From contig CAZKCG010000014.1 of NCBI GenBank assembly GCA_964551445.1, forward strand, positions 26,765 to 38,688: 11,924 nt of DNA. Reading direction: 5' to 3'. Positions 484-10,020 of the stretch are shown in pieces; the first letter of the stretch is position 1, and the number at the start of each line of letters is the position of its first letter. The position numbers were made by a program, and so were the translations under genes. The DNA comes from an uncultured bacterium (lineage in GTDB: Bacteria > Muiribacteriota > UBA9980). The notes under the pieces are model-generated. The model was not told the origin of the DNA, did not search any database, and saw nothing but the letters and a program-made list of their open reading frames with translations.

Positions 484-1119
484 TTATTTGTCCACATCTT
501 CTTTTTCGATGCGTTTTATAACCTCGTTGGTAAGTTCGCGGTGTTTTTCATAATGTTGCATATACTTACTGGTATCGCCTTTAATATAATAGCAAAGTCC
601 GAGTTTTTTATGGCCTTCAGCCATTACTTCATCATTTTGTGAATTTCGGTTCATGATATTTCCAAGTTCGACGATTATATCGTCAACTCTGTTTTCCTTC
701 ACAAGCGGTTTCAACGAACCGAATTTTCCGGTCTCATCCTCTAACAAAGAGCTTGCCGAACCTACATTTGCGCTTCCTTTGGCGAAACTGCGCTGCGTCT
801 CTTTCTGTTCGCGGGAGAGTTCGATCATCTTCTGCTTATATTCGTTAGAGGAAACGATCTTGGATTCTTCGAGATATATCTCAAAAGCGCTTTTAAAATA
901 ATCAAGGCTGATTTTAGAAGAGTTTTGAACCGTTTGAACCGCCTTCGTCGCATTTGTTTTAGTGCCCGCGCAGGAACAGGAACAAGATTCGAGAAAAAGA
1001 GCTGAAAAAAGCATTATGAAAAGAAAAGCCAGCCTTAACTGATCTTTTTGAAGCGCCGAAATTAAATTATCGTTATTGATACCATTATTATTTTTCATAT
1101 TAATAGTCCATATTGTCAT
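484..1119 (-). CDS. Putative secreted or lipoprotein-like protein with a C-terminal helical (TPR-like?) region. Last gene of the pseudopilin operon. Start is uncertain (TTG 1122, ATG 1119 or ATG 1098).
   Basis: 212-aa ORF. The N-terminal hydrophobic segment LAFLFIMLFSALFLESCSCSC resembles a signal peptide with a possible atypical lipobox Cys. The start overlaps or abuts the upstream gene's stop (stop TAA 1102-1100, ATG 1098 one nt later), which fits translational coupling. Confidence 0.5.
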   Translation of the reverse strand: MTIWTINMKNNNGINNDNLISALQKDQLRLAFLFIMLFSALFLESCSCSCAGTKTNATKAVQTVQNSSKISLDYFKSAFEIYLEESKIVSSNEYKQKMIELSREQKETQRSFAKGSANVGSASSLLEDETGKFGSLKPLVKENRVDDIIVELGNIMNRNSQNDEVMAEGHKKLGLCYYIKGDTSKYMQHYEKHRELTNEVIKRIEKEDVDK

Positions 1120-1672
1120 CAACCCATGAGAAAAAACCTTTATATCTGGCTGATTGAAATAGATAACGGGGGTAAACTTTAGTTAAAAGCGTAGTGTTGA
1201 CCTTGTCGTACTTCTGGCGTTCGACGATCACTTCTACCTCGGCTTCAATTTTTACCGCGACATATTCCGGCTTAATAAAGATCTTGAGATCTTTCACGTT
1301 TTTAGCGATAACTTCTTTTTTTGATGTGGTTTTATTAGAATAACTTAACTTGTCGCCGTCCAGATAATATTCCACGGATTCGGTATTAGCCGCTCCAAGA
1401 CCTGTATTAGGAAATCCGACCGTAGGCTTCCCGCGGAAATATTTAATGGTCAGCTTCGAATCTTTATATTCGACGGAATGCGCGCCGCGCAGATCCTTGC
1501 TTATTCGCTGAAGCGCCATTCTGGCGTCCTGCTGCTGGTCTATGTTGATATCGTCAGTCATTATACGCGGGACCTGAGTTCCGAAAAGATAATAAACCGT
1601 GGCCATCATTATTATAAGCGCGACGGTCGATATTATCATTTCTATGAGGGTGAATCCTTTTTTATTAATCAT
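1100..1672 (-). CDS. Prepilin-type N-terminal cleavage/methylation domain protein (type IV pilin or T2SS pseudopilin).
   Basis: 190-aa ORF beginning MINKKGFTLIEMIISTVALIIMMATVYYLFG. This is the canonical class III signal (short basic leader, G|FTLIE with Glu+5, then a hydrophobic helix). It overlaps the upstream gene by 8 nt (1665-1672). Confidence 0.8.
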   Translation of the reverse strand: MINKKGFTLIEMIISTVALIIMMATVYYLFGTQVPRIMTDDINIDQQQDARMALQRISKDLRGAHSVEYKDSKLTIKYFRGKPTVGFPNTGLGAANTESVEYYLDGDKLSYSNKTTSKKEVIAKNVKDLKIFIKPEYVAVKIEAEVEVIVERQKYDKVNTTLLTKVYPRYLFQSARYKGFFSWVDDNMDY

Positions 1673-2165
1673 TGGGATTCTCCTTTGAAATATAAGTTAC
1701 AAGCCTTATAGCGCTGTGCGTTATCGGCCGCCTCATATCGTCGAGTTCTTCCCATTTAATATTAACCGCGACCTCTTTTATATTCGGGTTTTTGGCCGGA
1801 AGCTCCTTGCCGTCGCGGACTATTATCTGTTTTTTAAAATATTTATAATTTTCTGGATATGCTATCTTTTCTTTGTCATCCGATATCCATTCGCCCTCGA
1901 ACCCGTCCCATGCCGTCGGAAGCATGGACGAGACCTCGGCGAACTTTTTCGCCTTGACCTCTTCCATCGTTTGAAGCGCCAGATTTAAGGCGGTCAGGGC
2001 ATTCTTCGACTTGATCGTCGCGTCGGTCGTAAATAAAAATATCTTCAAGATCGCTGGCGTCAAAACACTTAAGATCGCCAGAAAAATAAGGACGAATGCA
2101 AGCGTGTTGCCCTTTTCGAACAGGGAAATATTAAATTTTCTGAAATTTTTCTGGCCGTTTCCCAT
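1665..2165 (-). CDS. Bitopic pseudopilin-like or pilus-assembly (GspM/PilO-like) membrane protein. Its class III signal is degenerate and lacks Glu+5.
   Basis: 166-aa ORF. A 19-aa basic N-terminus ends in KG, followed by NTLAFVLIFLAILSVLTPAILKIF (a single TM helix). The ATG at 2165 lies 3 nt after the upstream gene's TAA (2171-2169). AAAGG sits about 10 nt upstream. Confidence 0.5.
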   Translation of the reverse strand: MGNGQKNFRKFNISLFEKGNTLAFVLIFLAILSVLTPAILKIFLFTTDATIKSKNALTALNLALQTMEEVKAKKFAEVSSMLPTAWDGFEGEWISDDKEKIAYPENYKYFKKQIIVRDGKELPAKNPNIKEVAVNIKWEELDDMRRPITHSAIRLVTYISKENPND

Positions 2166-2168
2166 AAA

Positions 2169-3905
2169 TTACTTGCCTTTCTTCTCTTCGAACCATGAAG
2201 AATATATAGGGCTCATGCTGACGACGTATTGTTCATTTTTACGATCATCCAGACGCTTCTGGTAGTTGATGTCCAGATGCGCGTAAAACTTCGCCGGATT
2301 AAGATTTTCAACCGCCAGGTTTCCGAAAATCTTAAAGGAGCTGGTCACGCTGACCCCGCTGTTATTGGTCGTCGTAAAAAATTGAAGGCCGTTAAAGGTG
2401 AAAACGTTAGCGTAAACGTTAAATGTTTGAACTCCCGTGTTGTCGTTCTTTTTATGCCACTTGTACATGAGAGGATTCACCGATTTAGGGTATAGTATAA
2501 GGCTTAAATTCGAAGGGCCTTTATCGGTTTTCGGGTCTTTTTTTAAATTCACGTTGTTGTTTATGCACATCGCGTTATCGGAAAATATGACGCCGCGGCC
2601 TTTATAATTAAATTCCTGCGCCTCCGTTCCGAGCTCGGCCTTGTTGGTGAATAAGATCCCGTTGATAAGGAATGAATCGCCGTTTTCGAATATCTTCATA
2701 TCGTTATATTTAAGCTCGGGCGAAAAATACAGCGCTCTCATTTTATAGTGATTAGCGTCGAAAGAGGCCGTCTTCATAGGAAGATCAGGTTCGAGTTTAA
2801 AAAAACCTCCGGCCGGAGTGTAGGGTTCGACTATCCGTTCAGGTATCGGAAGCAGATTATATGAATAGGTCGGCGAGGTCGAGGGCGGCACGGGAGGGTA
2901 AACATTACAATCTATGGTGTATTTGCCGTAGACCTTTTGAACGAAGCCGTAAAGTTTTTCGGGCAGGCTTATGTTCGAACCGATTCCGGTTAAATTGTGC
3001 TTTCCGAATAATCTTACGCGGCCCTTATGTTCTTTGTCCTTAACGGCGCTTCCATCCGAACCGTCCGATTTTCTTTTGAATTCGCCATAAACATAAGTAT
3101 AGGGGATCGCGGTCGGGACCGGAACAGGCGGAATTGGAGTACACCATTTCAGAGGCAGAGGCAGGGGGCTTGTGGACAGCGGATTCGGAGGCGAGAGCCA
3201 CCCGTAGCGGTCTCCGATGTAAGCTGAAACCGGGTGAGTGCTGTCGCTCGCGATCCTTATGCTGCCTGATTTGTCTGATTGTTTATCGCGGTTCAGACAG
3301 GTTATTATCGGCCCGTCGTTTATCTCGAATTCCTTCATATAGGCGTTCGTGTACAGCGTGAAATCCTGCGCGGGCGGAGTTATGTTGACGACCTTTATAT
3401 CTCGCGTTATCTTAAGGGTCATGTCGACGTCGTAATAACTCATCTGGCATGTGAAAACGAGCGTCCCGGCTTTTTCTTTCTTGTCTGGCGATCCGGGAAA
3501 ACCGACCACGTCGACAAAATCCATGGTAAGCCTTCCGAATTTGGAACCGGGCATCTCGCTTATCAAAAAATCCACGTTCTTTCGGATATCGGGATATTTA
3601 TCGTAAAGATTGACGACTCTTATGGTTGTGCTATTATCGATAAAATCTGTTTTTAATTTAGGATCTTCATTTATTTTAGTGTTCATATATTCCATAGCGA
3701 GATTTAACACGCCCTCCGCAAGATATGAAACCACGTTCTGCCTGTGTATGCGGAAGGTCTGCGTATGTCCTGATGAGCTTCTCGATATCATTGAGTAACC
3801 TAAAACGATCATGAAAAGAACGAAAGGCAGCAGCATCAGGACCACGTTGCCAGCCCGTCTTCCATTTATTCGCATCAAAGCTTTTTTTACGCCGGATATT
3901 ATCAT
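2169..3905 (-). CDS. Large bitopic membrane protein with two proline-rich linkers. Candidate GspK/PilX/PilY1-like minor pseudopilin or tip-associated protein. First gene of the operon.
   Basis: The six-frame ORF runs to 3950, but that start overlaps the predicted -10 element. The first in-frame ATG downstream of the predicted transcription start is at 3905 (AAAGG 8 nt upstream), giving 578 aa. The N-terminus MIISGVKKALMRINGRRAGNVVLMLLPFVLFMIVLGYSMI is a basic stretch followed by one TM helix. The proline-rich segments are SPPNPLSTSPLPLPLKWCTPIPPVPVPTAIP and YPPVPPSTSPTYSYNLLPIP. Confidence 0.5.
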   Translation of the reverse strand: MIISGVKKALMRINGRRAGNVVLMLLPFVLFMIVLGYSMISRSSSGHTQTFRIHRQNVVSYLAEGVLNLAMEYMNTKINEDPKLKTDFIDNSTTIRVVNLYDKYPDIRKNVDFLISEMPGSKFGRLTMDFVDVVGFPGSPDKKEKAGTLVFTCQMSYYDVDMTLKITRDIKVVNITPPAQDFTLYTNAYMKEFEINDGPIITCLNRDKQSDKSGSIRIASDSTHPVSAYIGDRYGWLSPPNPLSTSPLPLPLKWCTPIPPVPVPTAIPYTYVYGEFKRKSDGSDGSAVKDKEHKGRVRLFGKHNLTGIGSNISLPEKLYGFVQKVYGKYTIDCNVYPPVPPSTSPTYSYNLLPIPERIVEPYTPAGGFFKLEPDLPMKTASFDANHYKMRALYFSPELKYNDMKIFENGDSFLINGILFTNKAELGTEAQEFNYKGRGVIFSDNAMCINNNVNLKKDPKTDKGPSNLSLILYPKSVNPLMYKWHKKNDNTGVQTFNVYANVFTFNGLQFFTTTNNSGVSVTSSFKIFGNLAVENLNPAKFYAHLDINYQKRLDDRKNEQYVVSMSPIYSSWFEEKKGK

Positions 3906-3940
3906 AGATAAACCTTTTTCATTTTTTATTACTTCACATA

Positions 3941-3969
3941 ATTTTATCAAAATATTGCAATAATGTCAA
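3941..3969 (-). promoter_or_regulatory. Sigma70-type promoter for the minus-strand pseudopilin operon (TTGACA-17 bp-TGaTAAAAT on the minus strand).
   Basis: Plus-strand tgtcaa at 3964-3969 reads TTGACA on the minus strand. Plus-strand atttta at 3941-3946 reads TAAAAT, with TGa immediately upstream (extended -10). The spacer is 17 bp. The predicted transcription start is near 3934. Confidence 0.55.
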
Positions 3970-4706: not shown

Positions 4707-4735
4707 TTGACATATATAAAAACATATGATATAAT
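4707..4735 (+). promoter_or_regulatory. Consensus sigma70 promoter for tRNA-Leu (TTGACA-17 bp-TGaTATAAT).
   Basis: TTGACA is at 4707-4712, the spacer is 17 bp, and TGATATAAT is at 4727-4735. The predicted transcription start is about 4742, with the tRNA 5' end at 4749. AT-rich sequence lies upstream. Confidence 0.7.
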
Positions 4736-4748
4736 CACAATCGTTATT

Positions 4749-4832
4749 GCCGGAGTGGTGAAATTGGCAGACGCGGTGGACTCAAAATCCACTGAGGGCA
4801 ACCTCGTTCCGGTTCAAGTCCGGACTTCGGCA
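4749..4832 (+). tRNA. tRNA-Leu (anticodon CAA), a class II tRNA with a long variable arm. The 3' CCA is not encoded.
   Basis: The 84-nt sequence is GCCGGAG...CTTCGGCA. The acceptor stem has 7 bp including one G-U pair. The anticodon loop is CTCAAAA in a GTGGA/TCCAC stem. The T-arm is CCGG-TTCAAGT-CCGG, and the variable arm GAGGGCAACCTCG is long, typical of Leu. Confidence 0.93.
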
Positions 4833-4844
4833 TTTCATTAGGAT

Positions 4845-4917
4845 CGCCAGTTTTTAGCAGAGCGGTATTACCTTAGCGTAGTACGAAACGTTGCACAGGC
4901 TAAAGACTGGCGTTTTT
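4845..4917 (+). terminator. Stem-loop with a 14-bp stem (one G-U pair), a 40-nt loop and a U5 tract. Candidate intrinsic terminator for tRNA-Leu, or a small structured RNA.
   Basis: CGCCAGTTTTTAGC (4845-4858) pairs with GCTAAAGACTGGCG (4899-4912), followed by TTTTT at 4913-4917. Confidence 0.5.
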
Positions 4918-5025
4918 AATTTAAAAGAACCTGGACCAACCGGCGTTCTCTGGAAAATTTCCTGATTTTTCCCTGATATTAGAGGACTTTTGAGAATATA
5001 TAGATAAGATTAACCGGGGGTATGT

Positions 5026-6432
5026 ATGAAAGTATGCAGAAATTTCAAAGCTTTAATTTTAATTTCATCGCTTTTCTTCTTCTGTCTTTGCGCTCTTGAT
5101 CTGCCCGTCATGCGCAACAAAGCATTTGCCGAAGAGAAAAAAACGGTTCCCAAAAATGAAACGATAAAAAAAGACAAAGACAAAAAAACTGAAGATAGCT
5201 CAACCGCCAAAAGCGACGGCAACAAGAAAAAAGAAACCGCTTCCGATAAAAAGAAGAGTAAAGATGAGAAAGCGGCCGCCGCTAAAAACAAAGATAAAAA
5301 AGAAACCGAACATGCTGAAAATTCGAAGAAAACAGAAAATAAATCTTCCGAAATGAAAGACAAAGATAAAAAAGAGTCCCGGGCAGCTGAAAATTCGAAG
5401 AAAAAAGACAAGAGCGTGACCGCGAAAAAAAGCTCGAAAAAAACAAAGGACGGCAAAACGGCCGCGGCCGATAAAACTTCAGCAAGTGAAAAATCCGCGA
5501 AGGCGCCCGCAAAAACCGATGAGATAACAATAAATTCGACCACTTTCAAACTCGGGGGACTCACGCTCGAAGAAAGTTCGACCGCCAGAAGCGGCGACAA
5601 GCTGAAAAAAATAAAAGAACTCGCGTCCGAAGTAAAACAAAGTTACGAAACGACCCGGAAGACCAAACCCAAAAAAACCAATAAATATTCGTTAAAACTT
5701 CCGGAAAGCTATCATCAGGTAGATATGCGACTCGCTCAACAGGTAATGGACCGCGTTAACCTTAAATCATTTTCCATGTTCCGCAGGCTATATCAGCCTT
5801 ACGTTAAAACCGGGAAACTCAAAAAAATACCGGAGCCTAAAAACAAGCCCAAAGACGAACTGGACGGACGGATAAAAATGACCGTTTTCATAGTCGCAAG
5901 CTTTATAAACGAGGTCATTGAAAAATACGATTCGGGCAACCTGTCGAAAAGCCACAAAAATTTCGGCGACTGGGTGAGCGAAGGCGCGCATATCCTCGCC
6001 TACGGCGGAACTTATTCAATGAAGATCCCCGTGGAAAAAAGCTCGAAAAAGAAAAAAGAAAAAAGCGGGATAATTTCCGCAAGCGTCGCGAAAAAACTTT
6101 TGAGAGCGCTTATAGAAACGGAATCGTCCGGAACGCAGATGAAAGGCGGAAAAGTTTTCACATCGCTCAATATGTCGACCTATCCGAACGACGGCTCCTA
6201 CGTGATAGGCTTCATGCAGGAATCGGTGAACGACTTCGCTCGCGGCGTGAACCTTTTCGACCCGGAGGTCAATATCAAATACACATGCAAAAAGCTGCAT
6301 AAATACCTGGTCAAATACGGAGGAAATATAGATATGATGCTGCGCGAATATAACGCCGGCGCCGGAAACATGGACTGCGCGCAGGCCCACAGGTATTCCG
6401 GAAAAATAATGAGCAGGATGAATAATTACTAG
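5026..6432 (+). CDS. Secreted lytic transglycosylase (SLT/GH23-like C-terminal domain) with an N-terminal lysine/aspartate/glutamate-rich disordered repeat region.
   Basis: The 468-aa ORF has a GGGGG ribosome-binding site 5 nt upstream of the ATG at 5026. The signal peptide is MKVCRNFKALILISSLFFFCLCALDLPVMRNKAFA|EE. Residues 37-166 are very K/D/E/S-rich. The C-terminus carries the SLT family-1 motifs ALIETESSGT (catalytic E-S), IGFMQ (G-L/F-MQ) and EYNAGAGN (AYNAG). Confidence 0.75.
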   Translation: MKVCRNFKALILISSLFFFCLCALDLPVMRNKAFAEEKKTVPKNETIKKDKDKKTEDSSTAKSDGNKKKETASDKKKSKDEKAAAAKNKDKKETEHAENSKKTENKSSEMKDKDKKESRAAENSKKKDKSVTAKKSSKKTKDGKTAAADKTSASEKSAKAPAKTDEITINSTTFKLGGLTLEESSTARSGDKLKKIKELASEVKQSYETTRKTKPKKTNKYSLKLPESYHQVDMRLAQQVMDRVNLKSFSMFRRLYQPYVKTGKLKKIPEPKNKPKDELDGRIKMTVFIVASFINEVIEKYDSGNLSKSHKNFGDWVSEGAHILAYGGTYSMKIPVEKSSKKKKEKSGIISASVAKKLLRALIETESSGTQMKGGKVFTSLNMSTYPNDGSYVIGFMQESVNDFARGVNLFDPEVNIKYTCKKLHKYLVKYGGNIDMMLREYNAGAGNMDCAQAHRYSGKIMSRMNNY

Positions 6433-6526: not shown

Positions 6527-8965
6527 GTGAACTTATTTATTCGAAAAAACAAAGTATATTCTGTTTTATCCATATTCATTTTTATTTCCCTTTCGTTGTT
6601 CACACGGGGCGGCGGCGCGGCTGAAAAACCTTCGATAAAAGACGTGCTGACGGACACGATAACGCGTCAGGAACAGGGCGCGGATATTTCTCCGGCGCGG
6701 GATCTTCCGCAAACGGGGGGGCTGAGCGTCGATGAACTCGAGGATAAGATCGTCATAGGCTGGCGCGGGCCGAAACTCGGCGAGATACTCGACACCGGAA
6801 TAAAAAAACGCGGCGCGCAGGTGGCCGAATATCACATCTTCAAAAGCAGGAACGCGAAGCTGAACTTCGTCCTTTGTAAAACCGTAAAAGCTAACAAGGA
6901 CGGACATTATAAATACGAGGATTTCGACCTTCAAAATAACTCGACCTATTATTATAAAATAATGATGGCCGACCGCGAGGCCGGGCTTCATGAATATATC
7001 CCTCAATTCAGCGCGGTGACGCGCGATATCAACAGGCCTAAAAGACCGCGCCGCCCCGAAGTTTCAAGCGGGGACGGATTCGTGAAGGTCCTGTGGCAGC
7101 CTTATACCGCGGATGATTTCAGCGAATATCAGATACTTCGCGCGGCGGAGGTCGGGGGCGAGCCTGAGATCATCGCCAGAATAAAACAAAGCGGGATCTG
7201 CCAGCTTGTCGATTCAGAGATCATAAACGGCAAAACCTACCTATATTCGGTCAAAATAGTCGATAAAGCCGGGAACGAAAGCCGCGAGTCCGACGAGGTC
7301 GTTGGAAAACCTCGCGACTCTTCCGCTCCCGCCGCGCCTCAAAATCTGAGATCGACGCCCGGAAATAATTCCGTAACTCTCTCATGGCAGCGGCCGGCCG
7401 ATCGCGACGTGGAATTTCACAGGATCTACATGCACGAAGGCGAGCTTAAGCCTGGCGCTAAAATGAAATGCATCGCTACCATCGCGGCTAACGATTCATT
7501 CCTCAACTCGTTCGAAGTTACGAAACTCAAGAACGGAAAGATCTACTTCTTCGAAGTAACGGCCGTCGATTTTTCCGGCAATGAATCGCCGAGATCGTTC
7601 GAAGTCAAGACCTCGCCGGTAGATTTTACGCCGCCGAAAACTCCGAGTTATATAAAGACCACTTCAATGAACGCGGCCATGCGCATAGAATGGGCGCAGG
7701 TCCCGGATTTCGACAATGATCTGGGCGGTTATAGAATTTACAGGAAATCCACCGCGTTCCCTAAATATATAGCGGTAGCCGAGGTGCGAAGTCCGAAAGC
7801 CTCCGCCGAACAGATGTTCTCGTCTAAAAAGAAAAAGGAGCGCGAAGGGGCCGCCGCGGGTTTTTATCCGACTATTTACGAATATACCGATAACGGGCTT
7901 TATAACGGCATGCCGTATTATTATTATGTGGTCGCCTTCGATAAAAAAGGTAATGAAAGTAAACCCACTGAGATCTCTGACGGGATACCGCGCGATAAAT
8001 CCGCGCCCAAAAAGGTCGAAGGCGCGGCGGCCGTATCTCATCTTAAAAAGATAGAGATCAAATGGAAAAAGAACAAGACCGACCGGGACCTGCTTGGTTA
8101 CTTCATATACAGGCGCGCCGAGGGAGAGGATAAATACGCTCTGATCGCTGAGATCAAAGATCTTGAAAAACCTTCATTCACGGATGAGAATCTCGCCATG
8201 GGCGTTAAGTATCATTACCGCGTGGCGGCATTCGACGAGTCAAGGAACGAATCGGTTTCTTCGGATGAATTTTTCGGCACGGCTCGATTTCCCAACCAGA
8301 TATCTTTCTCACGGGCGTACCTGAAAAACTACCCGCATACTTACTGCTACAGCATCAACCTCAACGGCATGAGCCTTTCGTACACGAAAAGCCAGGACAA
8401 TATAAGCTGGTCTTCATGGTCTGAAACGATAAAACTGCCTTCGGCCCCGCCTAATTTCGGCCGCATGGCGCAGATCTCGGTTCAAAAATGGACGAGCGGG
8501 ATACTCGTTTTCTGTTACAACCCCGAAACGCTCGATCTTTATTTCACGAACACGCCCGACGAGAAAAATTTCGGGACCTGGCAGATGCTTTTTAATAAAA
8601 TTGAGCTTCCGCCTAACTTCGGGACCAACTGCCACATATCTTTCGAAAAGGACGAAAAGACGCTTATGGCGTTTGCCTATAATCCCAAAACCTCTTCGGC
8701 TTATTATTCTTTCAGCCGCGATCTGGAGAGCTTCCTCAGATGGAACCTGTGCGGCCTTAAGGTCGCGCCGCCGCCTGAAGATTCGGACCTTACGAAATAC
8801 TGCATAACCTCGGATGAAAAAGGGTTCTACCTTTTCTCGTTCGACACTGAAACGGCGAAGGTCATGCAAAGCTTCTGCTTCGACAAAAAACACTGGAAAG
8901 CATGGTATAATTTCGCGAAGAATATGAAAAAACCGCCGAATCTCGAAAAGTCAAAAAACAATTAA
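6527..8965 (+). CDS. Secreted 812-aa protein with five fibronectin type III-like domains and a C-terminal Trp-rich tandem-repeat domain of unknown type.
   Basis: The start is GTG at 6527, with AGGGTGGG 6 nt upstream. The signal peptide is MNLFIRKNKVYSVLSIFIFISLSLFTRGGGAA|E. Five FN3 C-terminal strand signatures are present (YYYKI; YLYSVKIVDKAGNESRES; YFFEVTAVDFSGNESPRS; YYYYVVAFDKKGNESKP; YHYRVAAFDESRNESVSS), each preceded by a Trp about 50 residues earlier. Residues 587-812 contain repeats of about 55 aa with PPNFG, YNP and Asp-box-like S-x-D...W motifs. Confidence 0.75.
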   Translation: MNLFIRKNKVYSVLSIFIFISLSLFTRGGGAAEKPSIKDVLTDTITRQEQGADISPARDLPQTGGLSVDELEDKIVIGWRGPKLGEILDTGIKKRGAQVAEYHIFKSRNAKLNFVLCKTVKANKDGHYKYEDFDLQNNSTYYYKIMMADREAGLHEYIPQFSAVTRDINRPKRPRRPEVSSGDGFVKVLWQPYTADDFSEYQILRAAEVGGEPEIIARIKQSGICQLVDSEIINGKTYLYSVKIVDKAGNESRESDEVVGKPRDSSAPAAPQNLRSTPGNNSVTLSWQRPADRDVEFHRIYMHEGELKPGAKMKCIATIAANDSFLNSFEVTKLKNGKIYFFEVTAVDFSGNESPRSFEVKTSPVDFTPPKTPSYIKTTSMNAAMRIEWAQVPDFDNDLGGYRIYRKSTAFPKYIAVAEVRSPKASAEQMFSSKKKKEREGAAAGFYPTIYEYTDNGLYNGMPYYYYVVAFDKKGNESKPTEISDGIPRDKSAPKKVEGAAAVSHLKKIEIKWKKNKTDRDLLGYFIYRRAEGEDKYALIAEIKDLEKPSFTDENLAMGVKYHYRVAAFDESRNESVSSDEFFGTARFPNQISFSRAYLKNYPHTYCYSINLNGMSLSYTKSQDNISWSSWSETIKLPSAPPNFGRMAQISVQKWTSGILVFCYNPETLDLYFTNTPDEKNFGTWQMLFNKIELPPNFGTNCHISFEKDEKTLMAFAYNPKTSSAYYSFSRDLESFLRWNLCGLKVAPPPEDSDLTKYCITSDEKGFYLFSFDTETAKVMQSFCFDKKHWKAWYNFAKNMKKPPNLEKSKNN

Positions 8966-9009
8966 AACGCCGGCGCTTAAAGCGTCTGATAATTTTTCGG
9001 AGGAAAAAA

Positions 9010-10020
9010 GTGGTCATAAAAAAATATATAAAAGAACGCACTAACGAACTGGAAGCCATTTTCAAAAAGTTTGCGGGCATCAGAATGGTCATAGTCGGAG
9101 ACATTATGATCGACGAATACCTCTTCGGAAAATGCTCGCGCATATCGCCGGAGGCCCCCGTACCGGTCGTGGAAGTATCACGGCGCGAGTTCAGGCCGGG
9201 CGGCGCTGCAAACGTGGCCAGAAACGTTCTCGCGCTCGGCGGAACGGTGTCGTTATGCGGCATCATCGGTTCCGACGGCATCGGCAGGCTCGCCTGCGAA
9301 GAATTCGAAAAACTGGGCATAGGCGCGAAAGCCGTTTTTACTGACGAGACGCGGCCGACAACGCTTAAGACCAGGATCATGGCGCATAATCAACAGATCG
9401 CAAGGACCGACATCGAAAAGCGCCATGAAGTATCCGACGCCATCCGCGCAAAGATAATGAAATATTTCAAGGATAATTTAAATAAGTTCGACGGAGTGAT
9501 AATTTCCGATTACGCGAAAGGCCTCGTCAGCAAGAACCTCCTTGACGAGCTTCTGCCGTTTTTGCATAAGAACAAAAAGATAGTGACGGTGGATCCCAAG
9601 GTCGCCAATTTTTACCACTACCGCGGCGTGACCTCGATAACCCCAAACCGTAAAGAACTTTCAGACGTCCTCGGCGTTCCGGTCGAAACCGGCGAACAGC
9701 TTATGGCGGGCGGAAAATCGATATTGCACGACCTTTCACTCGCTTCCCTGCTTGTGACCCTCGGCGAGGAAGGCATGTGCCTCTTTACCGCCGACGGCAA
9801 AACCTTCATGATACCGACAGTAGCGCGGGCGGTCTATGACGTGACCGGCGCGGGCGACACTGTTATAACCTCTTTCACGATGGCTCTTATCGCCGGAGCG
9901 GATTTCGCGACGGCGGCCCTCATATCCAATTTCGCCGCCGGAGAGGTCGTAGGAATGCTCGGAACTTCAACGGTCGGATGCGACCAGGTCTTTCGCGCGA
10001 TCAAAAATTTTAAAAAGTAA
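9010..10020 (+). CDS. hldE: D-glycero-beta-D-manno-heptose-7-phosphate kinase (HldE domain I / RfaE1 homolog, pfkB ribokinase family). Kinase only, with no adenylyltransferase domain.
   Basis: The 336-aa ORF has a GGAGG ribosome-binding site 6 nt upstream of the GTG at 9010. Motifs [42 protein letters not shown] and [10 protein letters not shown] match the N-terminal kinase domain of E. coli HldE ([49 protein letters not shown]). The protein ends about where the E. coli kinase domain ends. Confidence 0.88.
   Translation: [336 protein letters not shown]

Follow-up and report, generated by a model that had tools for sequence, protein, structure and literature searches.

The stretch of DNA analysed here (the window) comprises 11,924 nucleotides from an uncultured bacterium (assembly GCA_964551445.1, contig CAZKCG010000014.1, positions 26,765 to 38,688 of the forward strand), and the gene in question is an open reading frame (ORF) on its forward strand at 6527..8965, with a GTG start and a TAA stop, whose translation is an 812-residue protein with an export signal. 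A Shine-Dalgarno-like GGGTGGG lies 6-12 nucleotides before the GTG. The protein carries five FN3 domains followed by a C-terminal domain of 226 residues (587-812, encoded by 8285-8962), in which the original prediction, made from the letters alone, had noticed Trp-rich tandem repeats. On the evidence of its predicted structure, this domain is very probably a β-propeller made of four blades. The features of the gene are listed below.

6527..8965, + strand: whole gene of the 812-residue exported protein (ORF list, translation, upstream Shine-Dalgarno-like motif, full-length orthologues L001 and L002)
6527..6622, + strand: Sec-type signal peptide, residues 1-32 (read from the sequence)
6626..6655, + strand: short motif KPSIKDVLTD, residues 34-43, at the predicted mature N-terminus (conservation)
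6719..7021, + strand: FN3/Ig-like domain 1, residues ~65-165 (Pfam Ig_Rha78A_N at 66-151; seven strands in the AlphaFold2 (AF2) model)
7049..7312, + strand: FN3 domain 2, residues ~175-262 (NCBIfam FN3-array match at 165-265; AF2 strands)
7334..7615, + strand: FN3 domain 3, residues ~270-363 (best Pfam fn3 stretch at 270-360)
7640..7990, + strand: FN3 domain 4, residues ~372-488, with a Lys-rich disordered insert at 421-449 (AF2 strands)
8012..8284, + strand: FN3 domain 5, residues ~496-586, adjoining the propeller directly (AF2 strands 501-585)
8294..8467, + strand: predicted blade 1, residues 590-647; ISFSRAY, YPHTYCYSIN, SLSYTKS, SQDNISWSSW hairpin, LPSAPPNFG linker
8468..8629, + strand: predicted blade 2, residues 648-701; ISVQKW, GILVFCYN, DLYFTNT, TPDEKNFGTW hairpin, ELPPNFG linker
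8630..8794, + strand: predicted blade 3, residues 702-756; ISFEKD, LMAFAYN, SAYYSFS, SRDLESFLRW hairpin, VAPPPEDSD linker
8795..8953, + strand: predicted blade 4, residues 757-809; YCITSD, FYLFSFD, KVMQSFC, FDKKHWKAW hairpin, terminal KKPPNLEK
8972..8996, + strand: terminator-like hairpin GGCGCTTAAAGCGTC with a T-rich tail, 7 nucleotides past the stop codon (consensus scan)

The tandem repeats are real, and every peptide quoted in the original prediction is present in the translation of residues 587-812. PPNFG occurs at residues 641 and 695, YNP at 664 and 718, and a third PPN at 803. In ungapped local alignments judged against 500 shuffles, repeats 1 and 2 score 92 (z = 16, 0/500 shuffles), repeats 2 and 3 score 54 (z = 6.5) and repeats 1 and 3 score 41 (z = 4.5). 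When phased at the 'IS' strand (I592, I650, I704 and I760), the domain resolves into four full units of 58, 54, 56 and 53 residues, and all unit pairs but that of 1 and 3 (z = 2.1), five of the six, score above at least 998 of 1000 shuffles; a fourth, linker-like segment, KKPPNLEK, closes the protein. The earlier estimate of three to four repeats of about 55 residues is thereby sharpened to exactly four units, each matching one blade of the predicted fold. Specifically, the first example given there opens with the Asp-box-like and PPNFG part of unit 592-649, which is itself the first full repeat, and what was taken for a third, degenerate copy is repeat sequence but covers the last part of unit 3 and the greater part of unit 4. 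The Trp-rich character holds as well, with seven Trp in the 226-residue domain (3.1%) against five in the remaining 586 residues, one per FN3 domain. The claim that the repeats belong to no known family also stands: at E ≤ 1, the domain matches no Pfam or NCBIfam family save for a chance-level match to FosA.

In the AF2 model of the domain, computed with a 13-sequence alignment (A3), the predicted local distance difference test (pLDDT) reaches 92.5 and the predicted template modelling score (pTM) 0.90, with all five models at or above a pLDDT of 91.8. The model consists of four groups of four successive β-strands, in every one of which strand 4 is short (2-4 residues). In domain numbering (+586 gives the protein residue), the strands run at 5-13, 16-25 and 30-36, plus bridges at 41 and 48-49, in blade 1; at 63-69, 72-79, 84-90 and 100-103 in blade 2; at 117-122, 127-133, 138-144 and 154-157 in blade 3; and at 170-176, 181-187, 192-198 and 208-209 in blade 4. 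Blade 1 scores 54.9 bits with a single-blade profile hidden Markov model (HMM) of the family. In each blade, strands 3 and 4 flank the D...W segment (domain residues 37-47, 91-99, 145-153 and 199-207). By the strand positions, one sequence repeat corresponds to one blade in the order strand 1-2-3-4-linker. Because strand 1 of blade 1 opens the domain and the linker-like KKPPNLEK closes it, leaving the phase unpermuted, the predicted ring would close with no strand swap ('velcro'). A shallower full-length model, computed with a 4-sequence alignment (mean pLDDT 74), is less sure of blade 4, where pLDDT falls to 53-63 and a helix is placed at 790-798.

The repeat motifs map consistently onto this model. 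'IS-F-x-K' forms the inner strand 1, 'x-[FY]-x-[FY]-N' strand 2, 'P-x-T' the turn between strands 2 and 3, and 'x-Y-[YF]-x-x' strand 3, while [S/T]-x-D-x3-4-[W/F]-x2-W makes an Asp-box-like hairpin into the short outer strand 4 and 'L-P-x-PPNFG' the linker to the following blade. By standard propeller topology, the PPNFG linkers (4-to-1) and the YNP-x-T turns (2-3) would lie together on the 'top' face, and the 1-2 turns and Asp-box-like 3-4 hairpins on the bottom face. The conserved Trp, Asp, Pro and Phe are structural, and the Trp- and Asp-bearing hairpin is no obvious ligand site.

Fold searches with the AF2 model return only propellers, in agreement with the small β-propeller that the original prediction had suggested beside a β-sandwich. 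The best Foldseek local matches are NanH sialidase (5.6e-6) and RSL lectin (1e-5), followed by GH117, GH32 and GH43, and global TM-scores are poor (0.33-0.36 against six-bladed and 0.41-0.48 against five-bladed targets); the model matches well-characterised domains at the level of the fold and not at that of a family. The nearest structural neighbours of the AF2 monomer include many closed four-bladed domains, and the modelled chain probably forms a closed, monomeric four-blade ring. Kinship with phage receptor-binding proteins was considered and set aside, as the viral structures of BFVD returned merely the same blade-level matches.

Relatives of the domain are few and share its organisation. 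An exhaustive phmmer search with the 226-residue domain against 1.84 billion cluster representatives yields just 13 proteins at E ≤ 1e-3, and P0011 (E = 8e-5) was discarded as a spurious repeat match made of six short stretches; it is a Cys-rich repeat protein whose tail is C-type-lectin-like. In 5.8 billion proteins searched through a word index, the domain alone finds none and the family profile just P0010, the index evidently missing the family. Relatives with the architecture of the window protein (window-type; P0001-P0003, 790-817 residues) have five FN3 domains, and Asp-box-type relatives (P0004-P0007, P0009 and P0012) combine a signal peptide and a 'VVIGxD' motif with a linker rich in Lys, Glu and Pro, several FN3 domains and four blades whose hairpins show a clean S/T-x-D-G-(G)-K-S-W-K-W-W pattern. 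P0008, P0013 and P0037 (a cluster mate of P0013, 1706 residues) are divergent, and P0010 (347 residues; one FN3 domain, then four blades) falls outside all three groups. P0037, annotated as 'TolB', combines Big_5, a PD40 propeller, FlgD_ig, a coiled segment and FN3 with four final blades, and its four-blade copy is divergent and lacks the terminal PPN tail. The module thus ends at least three architectures, namely five FN3 domains, a Lys/Glu-rich linker with three to four FN3 domains, and a Big_5/PD40/FlgD_ig/FN3 protein of more than 1700 residues. In a genome scan, full-length orthologues were found in L001 (88% identity, uncultured metagenome-assembled genome, MAG) and L002 (63%, Candidatus Wallbacteria MAG), both of which keep the reading frame across 812 codons. 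The L002 genome, a MAG with locus prefix QMC67, has both window-type and Asp-box-type paralogues. Named cluster members come from Candidatus Wallbacteria or from uncultured bacteria and bins, and are annotated as 'hypothetical', as 'FN3 domain-containing' or, once, as TolB. To judge from these sequences, the domain represents a family without earlier annotation that has so far been found only in Candidatus Wallbacteria.

The family blade HMM finds exactly four consecutive C-terminal blades in 16 of 16 proteins and none elsewhere in them. Additionally, a metagenome scan with an alignment of the Asp-box clade gives five loci, several of them nearly identical to proteins already collected, and those frames with a complete C-terminal domain have exactly four blades, again at the C-terminus; these loci were not direct inputs of the blade HMM, though several are near-identical to sequences that were. 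The repeat pattern is therefore conserved in homologues. In the window protein, the propeller region is the most conserved part (74% identity to P0001, versus 57-68% for the FN3 domains), and blade 2 is the best conserved blade (57% identity to P0002, versus 21-36% for the others). Conservation is concentrated in strand 2, in the hairpin and in one Pro per linker. Family-wide, the only invariant residues are W, P, F, W and W, among them F706 and the three hairpin Trp, W685, W739 and W793; no polar or charged residue is invariant across the family (Asp, Glu, Arg, Tyr and His checked), which argues against catalysis and also means that no binding site can be pinpointed.

The remainder of the protein would form an exported stalk. 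The signal peptide has a basic n-region, a hydrophobic stretch, SVLSIFIFISLSLF, and a cleavage-like site, GAA|E (A-x-A-type), at which it would be cleaved; it has no lipobox Cys, AF2 places a low-confidence helix at residues 13-21 in this region, and A-x-A-type signal peptides are found in all relatives. Just behind it, the block 33-44 is 75% identical to P0001, against 5% for the neighbouring linker, and the counterparts of KPSIKDVLTD read RPTFLDVLSD in P0002 and QPHFRDVLLG in P0003. The Asp-box-type paralogues (residues ~27-45 of P0004-P0009 and P0012) bear a V-V-I-G-x-D motif at the mature N-terminus, and in both paralogue types the motif is bordered by unconserved or low-complexity sequence; P0010 has no such motif. 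This short motif could serve as a retention or interaction element. In the full-length AF2 model, a hydrophobic N-terminal helix and disorder to residue 64 precede five seven-stranded FN3-like domains and the repeat region, and the Pfam fn3 match (E = 3.2e-21) and related Ig-like models are confined to residues 66-583. The insert of FN3 domain 4 has pLDDT below 50 at 432-445 and differs in length between orthologues. Only five residues separate the last FN3 strand from the start of blade 1.

No C-terminal sorting signal is recognisable, as had been stated at the outset: neither the whole protein nor its C-terminal 226 residues match LPXTG, PEP-CTERM, MXYO-CTERM, the C-terminal domain (CTD) of the type IX secretion system (T9SS) or an autotransporter barrel at E ≤ 1 in Pfam and NCBIfam. 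A match to MXAN_2561 is limited to the FN3 array (score 88 versus a cut-off of 150), and the protein C-terminus reads ...KKPPNLEKSKNN.

We propose that the four tandem blades of about 54 residues, each folded as an antiparallel meander of four strands, form a small, closed four-bladed β-propeller, which after Sec export would stand at the far end of a five-FN3 stalk of roughly 20 nm (estimated) and, being non-catalytic, would bind an envelope or extracellular partner via its top face or central channel. It is the 'top' face that Asp-box propellers use functionally (PMC2716378). As a whole, this reading of a model-based four-bladed propeller as a non-catalytic binding module on an FN3 stalk is held with moderate confidence; its narrower part, in which the propeller acts as the distal ligand-binding head, is plausible but tentative, and no data point to any ligand, carbohydrate and peptidoglycan included. 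As the same module ends at least three Wallbacteria architectures, a role as a common anchor or in assembly is just as conceivable as that of a head. In an anchoring arrangement, akin to SLH domains, T9SS CTDs and cell-wall-binding repeats, the propeller would tether exported proteins to a component of the Wallbacteria envelope, such as lipopolysaccharide, peptidoglycan or an outer-membrane or S-layer protein, and the FN3 array would project the N-terminus outward. The constant position of the module at the extreme C-terminus across these architectures, its restriction to one lineage with at least two paralogues in the QMC67 MAG, the lack of any other retention signal detectable with Pfam and NCBIfam, and the envelope genes next to it in the closest relatives (those of an SLT lytic transglycosylase and of a heptose kinase of the HldE type) are all in line with an anchor. 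However, a propeller of about 220 residues is far bigger than known sorting domains, the N-terminus of the window-type proteins offers no cargo beyond a 10-residue motif, and the gene context is lost outside close relatives, so that we regard anchoring as possible but rather unlikely.

A propeller of four blades might also be half of a larger ring. In crystals, four-blade fragments of WD40-type propellers form dimeric rings of eight blades (PMC6805158), and the family profile has its best PDB sequence matches in those dimer-forming proteins; two copies of the domain could pair in the same way, or the strand-like N-terminal motif could complete the domain in trans, cross-linking FN3 stalks into dimers, fibres or a lattice. 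The very short strand 4 of each modelled blade and the conserved motif at the mature N-terminus of both main paralogue types fit oligomerisation of this kind, but the AF2 monomer is confident and compact and has closed four-bladed domains among its neighbours, and P0010 has the domain without the motif; the chance that it is correct appears small. More speculatively still, the four-bladed propeller may have arisen independently of hemopexin by amplification of an Asp-box/WD40-like blade and may serve as a phylum-specific assembly device, which by 8-bladed pairing or capture of the N-terminal motif would join the FN3 stalks as a fibre or lattice with no need of a sorting signal, an idea to which we give a slim chance. 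A divergent catalytic propeller, that is, a miniature glycosidase or sialidase-like enzyme, is suggested by the best Foldseek matches (NanH sialidase, GH117, GH32 and GH43, E 6e-6 to 1e-3) and by sub-threshold BNR_2 matches in relatives. Yet these structural matches are blade-level only, with TM-scores of at most 0.48 and identities of 10-14%, the invariant residues are only W, P and F, none being Asp, Glu, Arg, Tyr or His, a ring of four blades has a very narrow axis, and a literature search gave no four-bladed enzyme, all protein examples being non-catalytic hemopexin-type domains; catalysis is accordingly very improbable. The possibility that the repeat is due to chance or composition and does not fold into a domain, or that the frame is mis-called, deserves practically no weight given z values of up to 16, a frame kept over 812 codons, a pLDDT of 92.5 and the placement of the repeats in the best-conserved region. 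We therefore retain the four-bladed, non-catalytic binding module as the preferred reading.

The neighbouring genes were rejected as functional evidence, as their context is not kept beyond close relatives. The adjacency of the SLT and FN3 genes is kept in L001 and L002 only, the downstream PfkB/HldE-like (heptose) kinase is conserved only in close relatives, and other family members are surrounded by unrelated housekeeping genes. In the window, the SLT-domain lytic transglycosylase gene lies upstream at 5026-6432 (+), and its product has, after the signal peptide, a Lys/Glu/Asp-rich low-complexity region of about 170 residues that resembles in composition the linkers of the Asp-box-type FN3-propeller paralogues. 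An uncharacterised FG-GAP/VCBS-like protein of 240-275 residues with a DxDGDG motif, encoded immediately upstream of the Asp-box-type paralogue, is common only to L003, L004 and L007; the L003 (6951-7778) and L007 (1442-2161) copies are 39% identical, and it is absent from the window. The terminator-like hairpin behind the FN3-propeller gene has weak support from the consensus scan, as such hairpins are no more numerous in the region than in shuffles; in L001, too, a hairpin follows the gene, with changed stem bases. The next gene, the HldE-like kinase at 9010, has its own GGAGG ribosome-binding site. Given the hairpin with its T-rich tail and the separate ribosome-binding site of the kinase, the FN3-propeller gene may be the end of a transcription unit.

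Further upstream, a tRNA-Leu(CAA) gene at 4748-4833 (+) forms a unit (4707-4925) with a perfect sigma-70 promoter, TTGACA-17 nucleotides-TATAAT with an upstream TG, at 4707-4735, and a long hairpin with a T-run downstream. L001 and L002 conserve this whole unit, likewise between the genes of the SpoU methylase and the SLT protein, and the promoter was dismissed as that of an SLT/FN3 operon because it drives the tRNA-Leu gene instead. On the opposite strand, 484-3950 (-) holds a run of four genes, one of which (1100-1672) encodes a prepilin-type N-terminal methylation motif (Pfam N_methyl); the products of the other three have no Pfam match, and two of them, including a 593-residue protein, have a hydrophobic N-terminal stretch. 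This run resembles a cluster for minor pilins or pseudopilins, belonging to a type IV pilus or a type II secretion-like system, and no link to the FN3 protein was seen.

β-Propellers are the textbook example of a fold built through repeat amplification. If the present reading is correct, this family would be a second four-bladed one, unrelated to hemopexin, with regular blades and still recognisable Asp-box-like hairpins, and would provide a new data point on the minimum size of a propeller, on closure in the absence of velcro or disulphide and on the evolution of blade number. Wallbacteria are known only from metagenomes, and the module identifies a group of exported paralogues with a probable role in shaping their cell surface; its practical value will stay modest until a ligand or an assembly role is demonstrated.

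Among known propellers, those with Asp-boxes (GH33 sialidases, GH74, Vps10/sortilin and Ycf48) are the first to be compared. They have been described with 5, 6, 7 or 10 blades, with the Asp-boxes between strands 3 and 4 (PMC2716378). Like them, the modelled domain has one [S/T]-x-D...aromatic hairpin per blade at the strand 3-4 position (AF2; PMC2716378), and the canonical S-x-D-x-G-x-S-W is present in blade 2 of the paralogues, such as SADGGKSW in P0005. In contrast to Asp-boxes proper, the hairpins of the window protein, SQDNISW(SSW), TPDEKNFGTW, SRDLESFLRW and CFDKKHWKAW, keep the Asp and the terminal aromatic residue but lose the Gly and the spacing, which is one residue shorter or two to three longer than the consensus depending on the aromatic counted. 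BNR_2 (PF13088) matches 4 of 13 members, at best with 22.4 bits against a cut-off of 31.4 (E = 9e-5 in one paralogue), and BNR (PF02012) matches 3 of 13, at best with 17.3 bits against a cut-off of 27, on blade 2 of Asp-box-type paralogues; the window domain itself has no Pfam match to BNR or BNR_2 at E ≤ 1. Hence the Asp-box likeness noted in the original prediction holds for the position of the hairpin and, in paralogues, for its exact form, whereas the spacing in the window departs from it and BNR scores stay below threshold. Moreover, all members have four blades, a number outside those listed above, and the blades are regular and devoid of catalytic residues, whereas Asp-box propellers are typically irregular.

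WD40-type and lectin propellers differ in other ways. A PDB search with the family profile finds solely the highly repetitive WD40-type protein Npun_R6612 (2ymu) of the cyanobacterium Nostoc and the designed WRAP-T series (E = 7e-19), an E-value that is the sum over 13 blade matches of 6-11 bits each. The blade pattern 'hydrophobic strand - S/N-P-D/E-G/T turn - strand - D-x-K-x-W' is common to 2ymu and the present family. WD40 blades have the aligned Asp in the turn between strands 2 and 3; here it lies in the 3-4 hairpin, so the 2ymu match is structurally out of register. GH and WD dipeptides are absent from the repeats, and Pfam WD40 matches 1 of 13 members (E = 0.048); WD40 propellers typically have seven or more blades. 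Against the propeller lectins RSL of Ralstonia and AAL of Aleuria, in which every blade has a site, TM-scores are 0.31-0.40 and no sugar-binding motif is shared; both are six-bladed rings, that of RSL being formed by trimerisation of a two-blade protein, and the Trp of the present domain belongs to the structural hairpin, on the face opposite the linkers. Membership in DUF6242 was rejected, as an artificial protein of four consensus blades scores 32.6 bits (cut-off 29) but DUF6242 is neither among the families listed for the real members at E ≤ 1 nor matched by the window protein; DUF6242 is the Bacteroidetes BamH, a six-bladed propeller (bioRxiv 10.1101/2025.01.31.636011).

The closest comparison in blade number is hemopexin. 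Hemopexin repeats are shorter, about 45-50 residues against the 54 of the present blades, and to our knowledge they lack an Asp-box-like 3-4 hairpin. In hemopexin domains a disulphide joins blades 1 and 4; no Cys column is conserved across the present family, so that such a disulphide is not among its features, and of C607 (blade 1) and C784 (blade 4) in the window protein, C607 is not retained in P0002. Neither the 13 members nor the window protein match Hemopexin (Pfam PF00045) at E ≤ 1, and identity to hemopexin-like domains (the C-terminal domains of matrix metalloproteinases and the hemopexin-fold members of SCOP b.66, namely hemopexin, vitronectin, plant PA2 and chickpea lectin) is just 5-9%. 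The modelled domain would thus share the overall shape of hemopexin but not its sequence. Natural four-bladed propellers in the searchable literature all belong to the hemopexin family, and the protein examples found are all non-catalytic (PMC3797127). By sequence comparison, the domain is best placed within the broad propeller-blade superfamily, outside every curated family, and, with its predicted structure, the new family is best described as an unusual four-blade variant of a well-known fold.

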